Under the pieces are notes generated by a model. That model saw nothing but the letters and a program-made list of their open reading frames with translations. It did no database searches and was not told the origin of the DNA. The position numbers and the translations under genes were made by a program. Below, piece by piece: positions 2,964 to 28,100 of a stretch of 32,000 bases of DNA. Each line of letters opens with the position of its first letter. Position 1 is the stretch's first letter. This stretch comes from Pseudoalteromonas tetraodonis (GTDB taxonomy: Bacteria; Pseudomonadota; Gammaproteobacteria; Enterobacterales; Alteromonadaceae): positions 540,001-572,000 of the forward strand of contig NZ_CP011041.1 of NCBI RefSeq assembly GCF_002310835.1. Direction: 5' to 3'.

Positions 2964-3001
2964 ATAAATTTCGGACTTTCACTCATGCATGAGTTAGTCT
3001 A

Positions 3002-3312
3002 GGGTCTGTTGACCTTTGCGGATTACAATTTGTTCAAACTAGGGGCGGTTTAATCGCGGCGCGAGGTTTGTAACCTAGTGGGCTAAGTCAAAACTGAGCA
3101 AAGCTTCCGCGTCCTGCTCACGCCCCTTACCTACATCCATGTAGGCAACAAAGAGTAAATCGCCCCTAGGCAGAACCCGAAGGGCAGTGCCTGTTTGGCA
3201 TTGATGCTGCGTTATCGCCTATTTATGGGGAATAACCACATCACATATGCTTTACCTTGGCTAAATACCAAACAGACTGCTGCAAATTTAACTTTGAAAG
3301 GTCAACAGATCC
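3002..3312. mobile_element. 311-bp MITE-like element, copy A (terminal inverted repeats, TA target-site duplication)
   Basis: Begins GGGTCTGTTGACCTTT and ends AAAGGTCAACAGATCC. The inverted repeats continue imperfectly for about 30 bp. TA flanks both ends (3000-3001 and 3313-3314). It has no ORF. A near-identical copy lies at 8122-8432 at constant offset 5120, with about 24 substitutions and no indels by manual alignment. Confidence 0.75.
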
Positions 3313-3343
3313 TAACCCCCTATTAAATAAAAAGGAAAGTCAC

Positions 3344-3709
3344 GTGGCATTTAGTGCAGACGAGTTAACCGAGCAGCTGATCAAACTAGAGTGTAGAAGT
3401 AACTTTAAAATAAAAAACATAGCTGAGTATATGCTAGTAAACTCTAAAGAGGCGTTTTATACCCATGCTGAAGCAGGTAAAGGTAAAATTGTGATCCGCC
3501 CGGCATTTGAAGTGTTTAGCGATGACTTTACTGATATTGATGGGGTTGTGCGTACTCAAGGCTATTTTCATAGCAGTGAAATGACCCGTTTTCCTACCCG
3601 TATTTATAAAAGTACGCAGCCTATTCATTATGGTGTCGCTTTTAAAATTAACTCTGAACAAGCGGCAAAAGAGTTTATAGCTAAGCTAACGATGATTATT
3701 GGCGGTTAA
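3344..3709 (+). CDS. hypothetical protein (about 121 aa from GTG 3344)
   Basis: The ORF track lists 3257..3709, but its TTG start and first 19 codons lie inside MITE copy A. An in-frame GTG at 3344 is preceded by AAAGGAAAG (3331-3339) at good spacing. I recognise no family motif. Confidence 0.45.
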   Translation: MAFSADELTEQLIKLECRSNFKIKNIAEYMLVNSKEAFYTHAEAGKGKIVIRPAFEVFSDDFTDIDGVVRTQGYFHSSEMTRFPTRIYKSTQPIHYGVAFKINSEQAAKEFIAKLTMIIGG

Positions 3710-3753: not shown

Positions 3754-3795
3754 TTAACCCTTAACCCTTAACCCTTAACCCTTAACCCTTAACCT
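3754..3795. repeat. tandem heptamer array (TTAACCC)x5 plus one variant unit TTAACCT
   Basis: Read directly: five perfect TTAACCC units at 3754-3788, then TTAACCT at 3789-3795. The array lies in the convergent intergenic region between ORF 3344..3709 and the aminopeptidase gene. Confidence 0.95.
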
Positions 3796-3982
3796 ATGTC
3801 TTTAATTACTACCTCTAAAAGCGCAGCGCCTCTTAACCTCTTTGTGAATAAATTTTTTAAGATCTTATTACACAAAGAGAAGACAATGAGAAGTAAATGA
3901 GAAAACATCAGCCATTAGCCCGAGTTTGAGGTTTTCGGCCCGTTACTCGTCGCCCGCAGCCCGCCATCCTTTAAACTTTAAC

Positions 3983-6556
3983 TTATTTGCTATTTAAAAA
4001 GCTATTGACTGATTTCAGTTCACGGTTTTTAAGTGCAATACAGTCATTGGTACTCTCTGCAAGTTTACTTAATGTACGCGCATAACCGGGTACAGCTTCC
4101 AGTTTAGCGTCAAAGAAACTTTGCGTTGTAGCTAAACTGTCAGCGTCACAGCTGGCGGTAGTAAAGTAAGGTAAGTTTGGCACAAAAAATGGTGGCAAGC
4201 TTGCTGTTACTTTATCGTAGTTGTTATAAATCCAATCAATAAACAGTGCTTGGCGTTCATCGGTGTAACTTTGACCCGATAAAATAGTACGCATATCAGA
4301 AGCCGTTACTTCGTCTGTTAAGCTATACGCCAGTACCGCTTTTTGTAGTTCAGGTTTACCAAAGTAACCCATTGCTGCCAGCATATTGGTACGCACTTGT
4401 GGATCTTTGGTGGTTTTAAAGGTTGTCATAAACTGATCTAGCAACGCCTTATCCCCATGAAAAGCCGCAAGACGTAAATAAGTACCTGCTAAATAAGGAT
4501 CTACCTTTTGTGGATCGTTTAAGTAAGCTTGTGTTTGCTGTTTGGCTTTATTGATCACATTTTTATCTTCACCATCAAACCCTAAGCGTGATACCACCGC
4601 GGCACGAAGTTGAGCTACTGCGCCATCTTCGCCCATTTTTGCTTCTAGGCCATATTTTTTAGCGGCAGGCATCACCGCATTTTGAATAAACGTAGGCCAT
4701 AAATCTTTATTGCTATCGTCTTTAAAAGTACGCTGCTGTGACGCTAAATAACCTAAAGCAGTATTAGCAACACGCGGATGACTATCGCTGGCAAATACTT
4801 CAAGCGTTTGCATTAATTTAGCCGCTGAAATGACACCGGCATCAAGTAGGGCATCTGTTGCCGATAATAGGGCTAAGCGTTCACGGTCGTTTAATACCCT
4901 AGCTGCATTATCTATTAACGCATTAAATTGCGCATCATCCATTACCCAACGGTAATAACCTAGCGCGCCTTGATCTGGATAAATCCACTCTGGTTCAAAG
5001 TCTAATGCTAGCGTTTGGCTTTGTTTATTTAATAATACATTGGCTGTTTGTACTTTATCGCCAGCACCATATTTAATCGCAACCGGTACATTCCACAGTT
5101 GAGCAGGGGCTTCAACACCGGCATTGGCAAAACGACTTTGCGAAATCGTAATGCTTTTACCTTGCTGCTTAACGTTAATTAGCGGGAATGACGACTGTTC
5201 AATAAACGATTTTAAAACGCTCGCTACATCTTTATTTGAAGCCTTACCAAGTGCTTCCCATAAATCGGCAGCTTCTGCATTTTTATAGGAGAATTCTTTT
5301 AAGTAGTTCTGAATACCAGCTTGAAATGCCTCTTCGCCAATCCAGTTTTCAACCATCGCCAGTACTGAGCTGCCTTTGCTGTAGGCAAGGCCTAAACCGT
5401 CCATAATATCGGCTTCGGTTTTAATTGGTTTACGAATTGGCTTAGTGCTTAAACGTGCATCTAACGCCATTACGTTGTTTTGTGGTAAATCTAGGTGTGA
5501 TTCAAACTCAGGATTAAGCTGCTTAGTAATTTTTGCCGCCATCCAGCTTGCAAACGCCTCGTTTAACCATAAGTCGTTCCACCACTTCATAGTCACTAAG
5601 TTACCGTACCATTGGTGAGCTAATTCATGGGCAATAATAGAGACATTACGTTGTTTTTTACTACGCGTTGCAGCTTCTAAATCAACCAGAAGAATATCTT
5701 CGCGGTAAGTCACTAAGCCTGAGTTTTCCATAGCGCCAAACGGAAACTCTGGAACAGCCACTGAATCTAGCTTTTTATATACATAAGGAATACCAAAGTA
5801 CTCTTCAAGTGCGCCCAGTACTTTAGGCATGTTCTCTTTTGCATATTGCGCTAAATGAATTTTACCTTGTGGGGTGATCACACGCCCAGGAATAGGCATG
5901 CCTTTAATTTCTAGCTCTTCAAATGGACCTACAGCCATAGCCACTAAGTAAGATGGAATTGGTGGCGTTTTATCAAAGTAATGGGTGGTCATATCGCCAT
6001 TCACCGTCGTTTTTAGCTCAGGTGTATTTGAATACACTTTTTGTGAGGTGGGGGCGGTAATGGTTAACTGAAACGGAATTTTATAGCTTGGTTCGTCAAA
6101 CACCGGAAATGCACGGCGCGCATCACTCATTTCAAATTGCGTGAACAAGTACGGAACGCCTTGATCTAGGGTTTTATATAACCCCACACTCTGGCGGTTA
6201 TAAGGCGCTGAAAAATCTATTTTTAAGGTGTATTTACCTGGCTGAATTTGCTCTTCACAGCTAAATTTAACTTTACCTGTTTTAAGCATTTCGCTGTTTA
6301 AATCACAGTTTTGCTCACCTAGGAGTTGCACCATTTTAGTTGCATAATCAACACCATTGAGCTCAATGTAGTGTGTTGGTTTGAGCACTTCTAAGCTGAT
6401 CTCGGTCATTCCTGCAAAGGTATCCTGACTTGGGTCGAGCGTTAAAGCGACTTTTTGTGAACTTGGCTTTGCGAGTTTTTCAATGACGAATTCGTTAGCG
6501 TGAGCAGCATTCATCGCAAGCGCAACGCTCACGGTTAAGAGGCTTTTTAAAAACAT
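3983..6556 (-). CDS. secreted M1-family zinc aminopeptidase (aminopeptidase N-like)
   Basis: 857 aa. N-terminal signal peptide MFLKSLLTVSVALAMNAAHA. GAMEN exopeptidase motif and HELAHQW...WLNEAF, which is the HEXXH-18-E zinc site. Confidence 0.9.
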   Translation of the reverse strand: MFLKSLLTVSVALAMNAAHANEFVIEKLAKPSSQKVALTLDPSQDTFAGMTEISLEVLKPTHYIELNGVDYATKMVQLLGEQNCDLNSEMLKTGKVKFSCEEQIQPGKYTLKIDFSAPYNRQSVGLYKTLDQGVPYLFTQFEMSDARRAFPVFDEPSYKIPFQLTITAPTSQKVYSNTPELKTTVNGDMTTHYFDKTPPIPSYLVAMAVGPFEELEIKGMPIPGRVITPQGKIHLAQYAKENMPKVLGALEEYFGIPYVYKKLDSVAVPEFPFGAMENSGLVTYREDILLVDLEAATRSKKQRNVSIIAHELAHQWYGNLVTMKWWNDLWLNEAFASWMAAKITKQLNPEFESHLDLPQNNVMALDARLSTKPIRKPIKTEADIMDGLGLAYSKGSSVLAMVENWIGEEAFQAGIQNYLKEFSYKNAEAADLWEALGKASNKDVASVLKSFIEQSSFPLINVKQQGKSITISQSRFANAGVEAPAQLWNVPVAIKYGAGDKVQTANVLLNKQSQTLALDFEPEWIYPDQGALGYYRWVMDDAQFNALIDNAARVLNDRERLALLSATDALLDAGVISAAKLMQTLEVFASDSHPRVANTALGYLASQQRTFKDDSNKDLWPTFIQNAVMPAAKKYGLEAKMGEDGAVAQLRAAVVSRLGFDGEDKNVINKAKQQTQAYLNDPQKVDPYLAGTYLRLAAFHGDKALLDQFMTTFKTTKDPQVRTNMLAAMGYFGKPELQKAVLAYSLTDEVTASDMRTILSGQSYTDERQALFIDWIYNNYDKVTASLPPFFVPNLPYFTTASCDADSLATTQSFFDAKLEAVPGYARTLSKLAESTNDCIALKNRELKSVNSFLNSK

Positions 6557-6670
6557 AGTTATCCCTAGATTTTTTGTTGTTAGAAACAGTCATATAGACG
6601 GCACTTCATCCTAACAGCTTTTTTTACTAGAGTAAGCGCAGATCGCTAAGGAAAAGAGTAACAAAGTTTG

Positions 6671-7390
6671 TCAGTGGCTATCTCGGGCTAAAAACCGCTG
6701 CCAATGAATATGGGAATTGATAACCCGGATCTGTTGTAGTACCTTATTTAACAAGGCTATATCGTTAAAGTTATCATGAGGGTAATCATTAAAGCCCATT
6801 AAATAATTAAAGCAGTCTTTGTTGCCTGCTTGCAGGGCATAAATACGAATTTGCTGTTCAAAGTTAAGCCGTAAGCTACTAATGGCGGTTTTCATACCGA
6901 GTTGATCCACCGAAGGAATTGCACATTTTTGCAAATACCCCGCGCGTTCACCTTCTCCCGAAAACCATATGCGCACTTTTTCGCTATAGCGCCCTGTTTT
7001 AGCAGGAAGATCGAACATTAAACGGGAGTGATTTTGTGCTTTTACATAAGCTAAATAGTCATTAAACCCAGCGCTAATAAGGGCGTGATGAACAGGCACT
7101 AAACGTGGCTTAATTTTACCGTGGGTATGAAAACTAAAACAGAGAATATTATTTTTAAGTATTAGGTCATCAAGGGTTAAGCAGCCAATTTCATCACTGT
7201 AAGCGCCACTGTAATAAGCAATTAAGGGCAGCCAAAAATGCCAGTGTTTAGCTTGTTCGCGGGCAAGCCGTGTATCACTATAAATATATCCGTTATAGAG
7301 CGTATGCAGCTCCATAGCTGAAAATGGACGACGACCAAGATGGGTTTTCAACGTATTACCTTGACAGTTTTTATTATTTTTATACCCCAA
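6671..7390 (-). CDS. tyrosine-recombinase (phage integrase) catalytic-domain-like protein, N-terminally truncated with substituted active-site residues; possible remnant
   Basis: WLPLIAYYSGAYSDEIGCLTLDDL, PRLVPVHHALISAGFNDYL, RLMFDL, ISSLRLNFEQQI and LMGFNDY parallel the conserved blocks of the integrase C-terminal domain (GARxxE, R.VPIH, HSxRHT, GH). The first Arg, both His positions and the GH His are replaced. The tracked start is a TTG buried in a 10-bp hairpin (7386-7412). No N-terminal DNA-binding domain is present. Confidence 0.45.
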   Translation of the reverse strand: MGYKNNKNCQGNTLKTHLGRRPFSAMELHTLYNGYIYSDTRLAREQAKHWHFWLPLIAYYSGAYSDEIGCLTLDDLILKNNILCFSFHTHGKIKPRLVPVHHALISAGFNDYLAYVKAQNHSRLMFDLPAKTGRYSEKVRIWFSGEGERAGYLQKCAIPSVDQLGMKTAISSLRLNFEQQIRIYALQAGNKDCFNYLMGFNDYPHDNFNDIALLNKVLQQIRVINSHIHWQRFLARDSH

Positions 7391-7440
7391 CTAACCGTTG
7401 CTGTTAGTTGGGATAATGTCAGCGAACTAACGCCTAAAAC

Positions 7441-7802: not shown

Positions 7803-8700
7803 TTAAAATTTAAGTCGAGGGTTGGTATTTTTAGCCGCTTGACGCTGACTAAACGCTTCATAAAACTTAACTAATTGCGGCTGCGCGCTAAAATCAGTGA
7901 GTTCACGAAAGCATATCCAATCAAGTAAGCAGTATAAACTGATGTTGAGGCATTCACAGCTTTTAAATTCATCATCGCATAAATGATCATTTAAATAGTG
8001 TAATGTTTGCGCAACTCGCTCATTTTGCAGATTAAAAAACAGCTTATCGGCTTGCGTATCAAATCCAGAACGTTGGCATAACAGTAATTCAACGAATGAA
8101 TCATTGCAGACATTGATGCTAGGGCCTGTTGACCTTTACGGATTAAAATTTCTTCAAACTAGGGGCGATTTAATCGCGGCGCGAGGTTTGTAACCTAGTG
8201 GGCTAAGTAAAAACCGAGCAAAGCTTCCGCGTCCTGCTCACGCCCCTTACCTACATCCATGTAGGCAACAAAGAGTTAATCGCCCCTAGGCAGAACCCTT
8301 CGGGCAGCGCCTGTTTGGCATTAATGCTACGTTATCGCCTATTTATGGGGAATAACCACACCACATAGGCTCTGCCTTGCCTAAATACCAAACAGACTGC
8401 TGTAAATTTAACCTTGAAAGATCAACAGGCCCTAATTAAAAAGTGCTCTTGAGGCCATGTAAGTGGGGGTTGCTGGGTTTTTTCAAGTAAATAACGCAGT
8501 ATGGTATTTGAATCACTTAGGGTAAGCGTGTCATCGACCAATATAGGAATTTTGGCTGCTGGATTTTTTGTGACCACCAACGGCCGATCGTCTTTAGAAA
8601 AAATATCGAGATTAATAAATTCAAGCGCACAATTGTTTTGTTGTGCCCAGATTCTAATACGGCGAACATAAGGGGAAGGAATAGAGCCAAATAGTTGCAT
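7803..8700 (-). pseudogene. YibF-like glutathione S-transferase gene interrupted by MITE copy B
   Basis: The N-terminal fragment (ORF 8422..8700) reads MQLFGSIPSPYVRRIRIW...KIPILVDD...SNTILRYL, a thioredoxin-like GST N-domain. It runs into the element and stops after 3 element-derived codons. A C-terminal fragment with no Met (8119 down to stop 7805-7803) reads SINVCNDSFVELLL...LLDWICFRELTDFSAQPQLVKFYEAFSQRQAAKNT. Deleting 8122-8432 plus one TA joins the two in frame (585 nt, 194 aa plus stop). Confidence 0.85.
8122..8432. mobile_element. 311-bp MITE-like element, copy B (inserted in the GST gene)
   Basis: Begins GGGCCTGTTGACCTTT and ends AAAGATCAACAGGCCC. TA lies at 8120-8121 and 8433-8434. 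It has the same orientation as copy A and about 92% identity to it. Confidence 0.8.
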
Positions 8701-27509: not shown

Positions 27510-28100
27510 ATGACTTTTAACCCGATAATGTTTGCCCGCCATAGCAACGCTAACAGCGCGGTTATTAATGCCTTACAAGCTAATAACAGCCACGTTGTTA
27601 TTGATTTTAGCGGCAGTGAAGCATCGGTATTTTTAAGTGCTATTTTAGGTCATGACCTCACCAAACTAACCGCCAGTGGCTTTGGTTTTAAAGGCACATT
27701 GGATGGCGATTTAAATTCTGATTTTAGCTACGCCGTTTACTACTTTAGCGAAACCGCCTTTAGATTTGTACTCTCAGTAAATGCCAGCTTGCAATTACAA
27801 GCACTCATTAACGAGCAACAGCTTAGGTACGATATCGACTTTGTGGTACGCACCGATTTAGCAACCTTTACCTTAACCGGTAGCAACGCCTTTGATACCT
27901 TAGTTGATGCGTTTAAATTAACCCCTGGCTTACGCCTTGCTGATGCGCAGCTTTGTTATGGCGCGCAAAGTGGCGAAGTGTTTGTTACCGCGGTAGATAA
28001 AAACAACGAGCAGCAGTTTATAGTGATTGCTAAAACGCCTACGCTTGATAAGTGGCAGCAGTATATGCAGCAACAAGGCTTTAGTGTTACTAACACCTAA
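27510..28100 (+). CDS. stand-alone paralog of the GcvT N-terminal region (truncated aminomethyltransferase-like, SoxG-like size)
   Basis: 196 aa. By hand it aligns with residues about 45-225 of the GcvT encoded 130 bp downstream. Matching pairs are SHVVIDFSGSEASVFLSAILGHDLTKLT vs [48 protein letters not shown] vs [18 protein letters not shown], and IVIAKTPTLDKWQQ vs [14 protein letters not shown]. It lacks the GcvT C-terminal domain. Confidence 0.6.
   Translation: MTFNPIMFARHSNANSAVINALQANNSHVVIDFSGSEASVFLSAILGHDLTKLTASGFGFKGTLDGDLNSDFSYAVYYFSETAFRFVLSVNASLQLQALINEQQLRYDIDFVVRTDLATFTLTGSNAFDTLVDAFKLTPGLRLADAQLCYGAQSGEVFVTAVDKNNEQQFIVIAKTPTLDKWQQYMQQQGFSVTNT

Follow-up and report, generated by a model that had tools for sequence, protein, structure and literature searches.

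Two copies of a structured repeat in a 32-kb stretch of Pseudoalteromonas tetraodonis DNA: a probable miniature element with the ends of IS5-family insertion sequences resembling ISSod6

The stretch of Pseudoalteromonas tetraodonis DNA considered here (assembly GCF_002310835.1, contig NZ_CP011041.1, positions 540,001 to 572,000; 32,000 nucleotides (nt), hereafter the window, numbered from its first letter) is a housekeeping stretch carrying prk, pepN, the genes for RNase R and gcvT/H and others, in which a non-coding repeat of 311 nt is present twice (Table 1). Copy 1 is intergenic and copy 2 has inactivated a gene for a glutathione S-transferase (GST). Both repeats are probably copies of a transposable element of the miniature inverted-repeat type, or MITE, with the ends of ISSod6-like insertion sequences (ISs) of the IS5 family, and together with many dispersed relatives they apparently constitute a previously unnamed repeat family that is abundant in marine Alteromonadales and Vibrio.

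The two copies lie in the same orientation at a constant offset of 5120 and align without gaps, with 24 substitutions in 311 nt (92.3% identity) and no insertions or deletions, which agrees with the values of about 24 and about 92% given in a first-pass annotation of the window. Outside both borders identity falls to 21-32% over 20-100 nt, which is chance level, so that the homology ends at the flanking TA and the surroundings are unrelated, as that annotation had held. Both copies read C-TA-GGG(T/C)CTGTTGACCTTT ... AAAG(G/A)TCAACAG(AT/GC)CC-TA-A, exactly as first described, the right end being the inverted complement of the left; the imperfect terminal inverted repeats, estimated earlier at about 30 bp, appear in a repeat finder as 31-nt arms with 81% complementarity in copy 2. 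The element is richer in G+C than the window (47.6-48.2% vs 40.8%), and no open reading frame (ORF) of 50 or more amino acids (aa) lies wholly inside it. No transposase was found in the window, either by Pfam scans of 28 ORFs or by tblastn with the partner transposase described below, and here too the first reading of the sequence was correct. A third copy or solo end was likewise not found elsewhere in the window, and ARAGORN found no tRNA or tmRNA there. Ends of Tn3 type (GGGGTCTG...) were considered for the element and rejected, there being no fitting 5-bp duplication.

The insertion of copy 2 can be followed in the gene that it interrupts. A minus-strand ORF of 92 aa with a GST_N domain (8422-8700) enters copy 2 by 11 nt and ends there at a TGA stop, and subtraction of the 311 nt and one TA restores an in-frame GST ORF of 194 aa. 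The rebuilt protein is 88% (P0001, full length) and 82% identical, end to end, to intact GSTs of 194 aa and 96% identical to a record of 153 aa (P0004). Contigs with an intact GST gene share the gene order of the window (rotamase, GST, DUF2750, hypothetical protein, pepN), and at the insertion point three intact syntenic alleles (L124, L125 and L153) read ...TTTTTTAAC-TA-GCATCAA..., that is AAC-TA-GCA, where the window reads ...TTTTTAAT-TA-(311 nt)-TA-GCATCAA..., with AAT before the TA; around this junction the closest empty allele, L153, is identical at 117 of 122 nt. Since the intact alleles carry a single TA where the window has one on either side of the repeat, the empty site is one TA inside CTAG, and insertion duplicated it. 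The collapse of orthologous empty sites to a single TA, which the first-pass annotation had named as a check, is thus seen for copy 2. Alleles with this interruption are common: the collection lists the truncated 92-aa product in 254 index blocks, Pseudoalteromonas sp. SM9913 (CP001796.1) among them, and the copy 2 locus is occupied also in L147-L152. A recurring annotated 92-aa 'GST N-terminal domain' product in this Pseudoalteromonas clade is therefore explained as the product of a gene split by a MITE.

Table 1. Features of the two repeat copies in the window, and relatives of the partner insertion sequence by host.
Feature	Position or host	Strand	Remarks
TA, left target-site duplication of copy 1	3000-3001		sequence; TA/TA flanks in the family
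MITE copy 1, 311-nt form (264-nt core plus module A)	3002-3312	+	intergenic, between ORF 2067-2963 and ORF 3344-3709
Left terminal inverted repeat (GGGTCTGTTGACCTTTGCGGATTACAATTTGTTCA)	3002-3036	+	only IS-homologous stretch of the left end; pairs with 3277-3312 in the terminal helix
Core domain A	3039-3169	+	arms CTAGGGGCGGTTTAATCGC (3039-3057) and GTAAATCGCCCCTAG (3155-3169); holds module A and invariant CAACAAAGAG (3146-3155)
Module A, two-hairpin insert, 47 nt	3098-3144	+	loop GTCCTGCTCA, hairpin CCTACATCCATGTAGG; GCAA direct repeats, borders ambiguous by up to 4 nt
Invariant small hairpin GAACCC-GAA-GGGCAG	3173-3187	+	loop GAA here, TTC in copy 2
Core domain B	3185-3282	+	arms CAGTGCCTGTTTGGCATT (3185-3202) and AAATACCAAACAGACTGCTG (3263-3282)
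Right terminal inverted repeat (...CTGCTGCAAATTTAACTTTGAAAGGTCAACAGATCC)	3273-3312	+	IS-homologous right end; 16/20 terminal positions as in ISSod6
TA, right target-site duplication of copy 1	3313-3314		
3' part of interrupted GST gene	7803-8119	-	joined to 8433-8700 gives the 194-aa ORF
TA, left target-site duplication of copy 2	8120-8121		sequence; empty alleles
MITE copy 2, 311 nt	8122-8432	+	within GST gene of the minus strand
Module A in copy 2	8218-8264	+	offset 5120; absent in L149 (264 nt), present in L147, L148 and L150-L152
TA, right target-site duplication of copy 2	8433-8434		one TA here in intact alleles L124, L125 and L153
5' part of interrupted GST gene	8433-8700	-	Pfam GST_N_3; reconstruction
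Partner relative	Vibrio alginolyticus / V. parahaemolyticus		90% identity
Partner relative	Alteromonas mediterranea		86% identity
Partner relative	Shewanella oneidensis MR-1		73% identity; annotated in RefSeq as 'IS5-like element ISSod6 family transposase'
Partner relative	Pseudoalteromonas sp. HL-AS2		65% identity; 5 places
Partner relative	Pseudoalteromonas sp. HL-AS1		65% identity; 1 place

The sequence around copy 1 is identical to chromosome I of SM9913 and its relatives, and for this copy no empty allele was found, the locus being filled in all six strains examined (L141-L146), which encode an identical 121-aa protein downstream. Every strain with that protein in the locus search carries the MITE, in a 311-nt or a 264-nt form, and the upstream ORF of 298 aa returned no matching record.

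It is clear that the element has many dispersed copies. A blastn search, of the kind that the first-pass annotation had proposed for counting copies, puts it at 76 sites spread over 19 large replicons from Pseudoalteromonas, Vibrio, Catenovulum and Saccharobesus, and it is always unannotated there; with each species represented by one genome, a pattern scan gave at least 119 loci, mostly in Pseudoalteromonas and with many loci per genome, the other genera among the matches listed being Aestuariibacter, Thalassotalea, Paraglaciecola, Neptunicella and Catenovulum, along with metagenome-assembled genomes of Alteromonadaceae. No copy was found by blastn against phages, and a phage origin was rejected on that ground. 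Among 104 near-complete copies, on which the statistics of size and flanks are based, 72 are of 264 nt, 15 of 311 nt (both window copies included) and 6 of 359 nt, and three subfamilies can be told by their ends (GGGTCTG, GGGCGTG and GGGCCTG), both of which always change together. Relative to their neighbouring genes the copies are oriented at random (++ 21, -- 22, convergent 22, divergent 11), and ORFs hold only about 4 of 98 copies, in both orientations, which led to the rejection of a self-splicing element or one that is harmless within genes. Matches of half length, which might have been ends of autonomous elements, were also rejected, since H14, H15 (flanked by an IS66 and an IS110) and the loci that have positions 146-315 alone represent truncated copies or run into the end of their locus.

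The target site emerges from the same 104 copies. The flanks are TA on both sides in 77 of them and one-base variants in the remainder. The base before the left TA is C in 66, T in 31, A in 7 and G in none, and the base after the right TA is G in 53, A in 43, C in 7 and T in 1; because left and right bases are uncorrelated, the target is best written Y-TA-R, with only the TA duplicated. Duplications of 4 bp (YTAR) or of 3 bp, as in other IS5 subgroups, were rejected for the same lack of correlation (C..A in 27 copies, T..G in 11) and because TAGGG/CCCTA is constant. Two further arrangements of the family deserve mention. At L068, around 6700-6760, two copies stand head to head, only a single TA separating ...CAACACGCCC from GGGCGCGTTGAC..., and at three separate loci (L072, about 3900-5040; L118, about 6220-7410; L128, 2953-4270, on a plasmid of Pseudoalteromonas sp. 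KG3) an IS110-family element sits at the same position in the right terminal repeat of the MITE, as ...GGTCAACAGAT/GTATGGACTCCC...GGGAGTCCATATAAG/ACCCTA with the slashes marking the junctions, which suggests that it targets this end specifically.

An autonomous partner had no candidate within the MITE loci listed by the pattern scan and was located by scanning viral contigs for the terminal 18-mer. Two elements found in this way (L129 and L132) have both ends, inverted and 879-883 bp apart, TA outside each end, and a single ORF of 252-253 aa whose product scores 266 bits against NCBIfam NF033580 (transpos_IS5_3, IS5 family transposase; cut-off 110) and, in Pfam, 82 bits against DUF4096 and 74 bits against DDE_Tnp_1. 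Relatives were found by tblastn on plasmids or secondary replicons (Table 1); the six ISs inspected all measure 878-884 bp and have a TA on either side, preceded by Y and followed by R, and one of them splits a traC gene. The ends and the TA/YTAR target are thus common to MITE and IS. ISSod6 runs from GGGTCTGTTGATCTTTGCTGTACAAATGTT to TCTCGAAAGATCAACAGACCC, and of its 20 terminal positions copy 1 matches 18 on the left and 16 on the right, copy 2 16 on the left and 18 on the right. Over the first 35 nt 26 positions agree between copy 1 and the left end of ISSod6, and on the right the similarity reaches, by eye, the ...CATGCTGTC... region, which holds the start codon of the IS transposase. The IS-homologous part of the MITE comprises about 35 nt on the left and about 40 nt on the right, the remaining core of about 190 nt being unrelated to the IS. 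The end variants of the ISs (GGGTCTG, GGGCGTG, AGGCCTG) parallel the MITE subfamilies, and Pseudoalteromonas sp. HL-AS2 has five MITE places and five IS places on one replicon; in HL-AS1 blastn finds 12 MITE places. One ISSod6-like copy in HL-AS2 is adjoined by a gene for a TnpB-family RNA-guided endonuclease (L136, 1402-1556).

Within the IS5 family, members of the IS427 group measure 832-865 bp and make 2-bp direct repeats (PMC3281130, Table 2), and the size and duplication of the partner IS would fit this group. Most IS427-group members have two overlapping ORFs with a frameshift, ISPha1 being a single-ORF member (PMC3281130), and the ISs found here carry one uninterrupted ORF.

Two parts of the element lie outside this resemblance to an IS. 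The first is a module of 47 nt, by which the 311-nt form differs from the 264-nt core, the 311- and 359-nt forms having one or two such extra modules of 47-48 nt at fixed positions. Each module forms two hairpins, the stems of which vary, with a loop (GCTCCTGC/GTCCTGCTCA) and an apex (ACATCCATGT) that are conserved. In the copy 1 locus the 311-nt form is carried by the window, L141 and L145 (SM9913) and the 264-nt form by L142, L143, L144 and L146, the alleles being separated by a precise 47-nt indel between GCAA...GCAA and otherwise by at most three substitutions; presence and absence of the module also distinguish the orthologous copies L110 and L106. The module occurs at a second site in Pseudoalteromonas copies and, in reverse orientation, at a third in Catenovulum copies. 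A variant of it is found in a second MITE-like repeat family of about 190 nt, which ends in ATACCAAT/ATTGGTAT with inverted ends ATACCAATTC.../...GATTGGTAT, seen at L114 (6600-6900, abutting the first MITE), L108 (3050-3350), L048 (810-1110) and L092 (560-860). A tandem pair outside any MITE lies in an intergenic position on a Saccharobesus litoralis plasmid (L140, 545-660), some 100 nt downstream from a group II intron's 3' end (domains V-VI, Rfam Intron_gpII, 57 bits). The module may be mobile in its own right, may be lost by slippage between the GCAA repeats, or may be swapped by gene conversion; the first of these routes is raised by its three positions and both orientations, by its occurrence in a second repeat family and in the Saccharobesus tandem pair, and by its gain or loss among near-identical strains.

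The second part is the core, which has a predicted consensus fold derived from twelve 264-nt copies of different genera. The fold consists of a terminal helix of about 22 pairs formed by the inverted repeat, a 4-bp GTTC/GAAC helix that closes domain A, the hairpin GAACCC-NNN-GGGCAG, and domain B. Changes on both sides of a pair are found in 41 of the 80 predicted pairs, including, across genera, 14 of 16 in helix 3 of domain A, and in helix 8 of domain B 8 of 20, with 94% of cells paired. Overall 93.8% of cells are paired, as against 32-43% when the partners are slid by 1-3 columns, and none of 500 shuffles did as well as the observed alignment; single copies also fold far better than shuffled sequences (z = -6.1 and -5.1 on the two strands). 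The predicted fold is real and is maintained between lineages, and with this conserved multi-helix core and its nested 47-nt module the element is, as had been supposed at first, larger and more complex than classic MITEs. Domains A and B were also considered as nested older MITEs, their arms starting TAGGGG... in Pseudoalteromonas, but in other genera the arms are wholly different yet paired, which makes this unlikely.

How such a fold is kept is the point on which other explanations have the most purchase. The covariation could be a mutational by-product, in which template switching (quasi-palindrome correction) and gene conversion keep the repeats complementary, and several observations accord with this. 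Over the family the hairpin loop is TTT in 29 copies and AAA in 21, TTC in 27 and GAA in 18; these are reverse-complement pairs, and they imply that the loop has been inverted repeatedly, although the stem has only 3 G-C pairs. The two window copies themselves differ in this way (3179-3181 vs 8299-8301). The module comes and goes at orthologous copies as conversion between 264- and 311-nt paralogues would have it, and three orthologous pairs (L031/L089, L110/L106 and L061/L094) are 96.2-99.3% identical, in excess of the 93-97% of their 250-bp flanks, an excess that is tentatively attributed to gene conversion among many paralogues, constraint being the other candidate cause. Private variants, moreover, are as frequent in paired as in unpaired columns (0.61 and 0.63 per column), from which it follows that inserted copies decay regardless of structure and that individual copies are under no structure-aware constraint. 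But the helices differ at many positions between genera and are nonetheless paired, even those of 2-5 bp; the flipped loop is closed by 3 G-C pairs, very short for template switching; and conversion within a genome cannot make compensatory differences between genera. A purely mutational origin of the covariation is on balance unlikely, although of the rival explanations it is the one with the most left in its favor.

A structured non-coding RNA or cis-acting RNA module, carried on IS5-type ends and with a core functional for the host or for the element, is a still less likely account. The strength of the folding and the covarying multi-helix consensus are what such an RNA would give, as are the invariant junction motifs (CAACAAAGAG and GAACCC...GGGCAG) and the better conservation of orthologous copies relative to their flanks, and there is a precedent in the bcr1 repeats of Bacillus, which show compensatory changes (PMC3184786). 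Over the family G-U pairs also exceed A-C (225 vs 106), but a single pair contributes 88 of these G-U and in domain B the trend is reversed, so that neither strand is favored. A loop found about equally often in each of two reverse-complement states speaks against a strand-specific RNA. The random orientation relative to neighbouring genes and the equal load of private variants in paired and unpaired columns also count against the RNA reading. Neither a promoter-like nor a terminator-like site was found in the element. The Rfam search that the first-pass annotation had suggested gave nothing at gathering score in the window; at E ≤ 10 the 311-nt form had only two sub-threshold matches of chance level and the 264-nt forms had none. 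We do not think that the element is an RNA gene that serves the host.

These results point instead to selection on active source copies, that is on propagation, and not on each insertion. The fold would most likely serve the propagation of active master copies, for example by uniting the two ends of so short an element as a cruciform or a folded single strand. An extension of this idea, which we hold to be rather improbable as a whole, is that the core may be a selected folded single-stranded DNA or RNA needed for transposition or persistence and the module a separate tiny mobile or precisely excisable element.

Explanations that concern the origin of the copies fare worse. The first-pass annotation had assigned the element to IS630/Tc1-mariner transposition, in which an IS630-family DDE_3 transposase would recognise the ends and duplicate TA, and the terminal inverted repeats and the duplication of TA at a roughly palindromic NTAN/CTAG-like target are indeed features shared with IS630. 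This assignment has had to be given up: the only autonomous elements seen to have these termini encode an IS5-family transposase, with DUF4096 and DDE_Tnp_1 domains (NF033580) and not DDE_3, no IS630 feature was found beyond the TA duplication, and a weak phmmer probe with Mos1 of 913 ORFs in 0.93 Mb of MITE-bearing loci found no mariner-like ORF. Nor is the duplication of TA diagnostic of IS630, because IS427-group members of the IS5 family also duplicate 2 bp (PMC3281130), and an IS630-type origin is accordingly most improbable. A segmental duplication inside the window as the source of the two copies, for which their common orientation and 92% identity might speak, is scarcely credible given that their flanks are unrelated right up to the TA, that copy 2 has a proven empty site and that about 100 unlinked copies exist elsewhere.

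The interpretation that remains, to which we attach a probability of roughly 85%, is that both repeats are MITE copies with the ends of ISSod6-like ISs of about 880 bp, of the IS5 family and similar to the IS427 group in their 2-bp duplication. The element has every feature of a MITE that sequence can reveal and works like a classic bacterial MITE, and the initial description of it as a non-autonomous, TA-duplicating inverted-repeat element that would have to be mobilised in trans is supported by the filled and empty sites and by its lack of coding capacity. In the mechanism proposed, a DDE transposase of 252-253 aa, encoded elsewhere in the genome, would bind the terminal repeats of about 17-20 bp, GGG(T/C)(C/G)TGTTGA(C/T)CTTT, and would then insert the element at YTAR sites with a 2-bp stagger, so that TA is duplicated; by analogy with other members of the IS427 group, transposition may perhaps be replicative. 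An ISSod6-like transposase is thus the putative mover of the element. Several points weigh against this interpretation. The link to the transposase depends on ends and a target that the two have in common, the window contains no such IS, and the placement in the IS427 group is based on size and the 2-bp duplication only. It also leaves unexplained why the fold should persist from genus to genus in a core that has no relation to the IS, and why the three orthologous pairs of copies exceed their flanks in identity.

No paper or database entry naming the element was found in the literature searched, and neither Rfam nor the named MITEs gave a match; the first-pass annotation too could match it to no named element or RNA family. 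A large automated census reports that Alteromonadales are rich in MITEs (PMC11602168), and the element may well be included there anonymously. The repeat family and its probable cognate IS should be useful for annotation, strain typing and assembly. They also illustrate that TA duplication and inverted repeats in a bacterial repeat need not mean IS630, the IS427-type members of the IS5 family giving the same signature, and the covariation of the core, the loop inversions and the coming and going of the module provide a tractable system in which to ask whether selection acts on the fold of a MITE.

Other features of the window can be noted briefly. ORFs 2067-2963, 3344-3709, 6671-7390 and 27510-28100 are conserved and have no Pfam match, and the 121-aa product of 3344-3709 is identical in many strains. 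Between this ORF and pepN, at 3754-3794, lies a perfect heptamer array, (TTAACCC)x5.9, and the distance from the ORF to pepN is 260, 267, 274 or 281 nt across strains with an identical 121-aa protein, and 85 nt in one. These distances differ by multiples of 7, which identifies the array as a variable-number tandem repeat. In SM9913 an IS3-family element with an rve-domain ORF occupies the same interval (L145, 2601-3625; CP001796.1), and the window is without it.

Among known systems, ISSod6 and its relatives are closest to the element in the window, sharing the terminal 16-20 nt (GGGTCTGTTGATCTTT... / ...AAAGATCAACAGACCC), the TA flanks, the Y-TA-R target, parallel end variants and co-occurrence on a Pseudoalteromonas replicon. 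The element differs from them in having no transposase gene, a core that is not related to the IS, and an inverted repeat of about 25-30 bp with covariation where the IS has a perfect one of about 17 bp. The Tourist/PIF-Harbinger MITEs of eukaryotes depend on IS5-related transposases, have ends of the form GGG(C/T)CTGT... and use short T/A-rich palindromic targets, but they make a 3-bp duplication (TWA) and require a second, Myb-like protein, and their likeness to the element is offered as a lead only. With Correia/NEMIS of Neisseria, ERIC of enterobacteria and Vibrio, and RUP of pneumococcus (with its IS630-Spn1), the element has in common that it is small, non-coding, multicopy and mostly intergenic, with inverted repeats at its termini, duplication of TA and transcripts that fold strongly (general points in PMC3184786). 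No sequence similarity to these classic TA-duplicating MITEs emerged from the literature or as an Rfam match. ERIC reportedly occurs in size variants through internal inserts, an observation credited to De Gregorio et al. in 2005. Unlike this group, the element reaches a greater size (264-359 nt), its core is a branched multi-helix structure in place of a single long hairpin, and it has a cognate IS that can be named, one of the IS5 family. The bcr1 repeat of the Bacillus cereus group, which is reported to be transcribed where the present element is known from its sequence, makes 5-bp duplications, belongs to another phylum and has another fold, but it too is a dispersed, MITE-like repeat in which compensatory changes keep a fold, there cruciform-like (PMC3184786). 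Set beside these systems, the branched and preserved core and the module nested within it are the only aspects of the element that go beyond an ordinary MITE.

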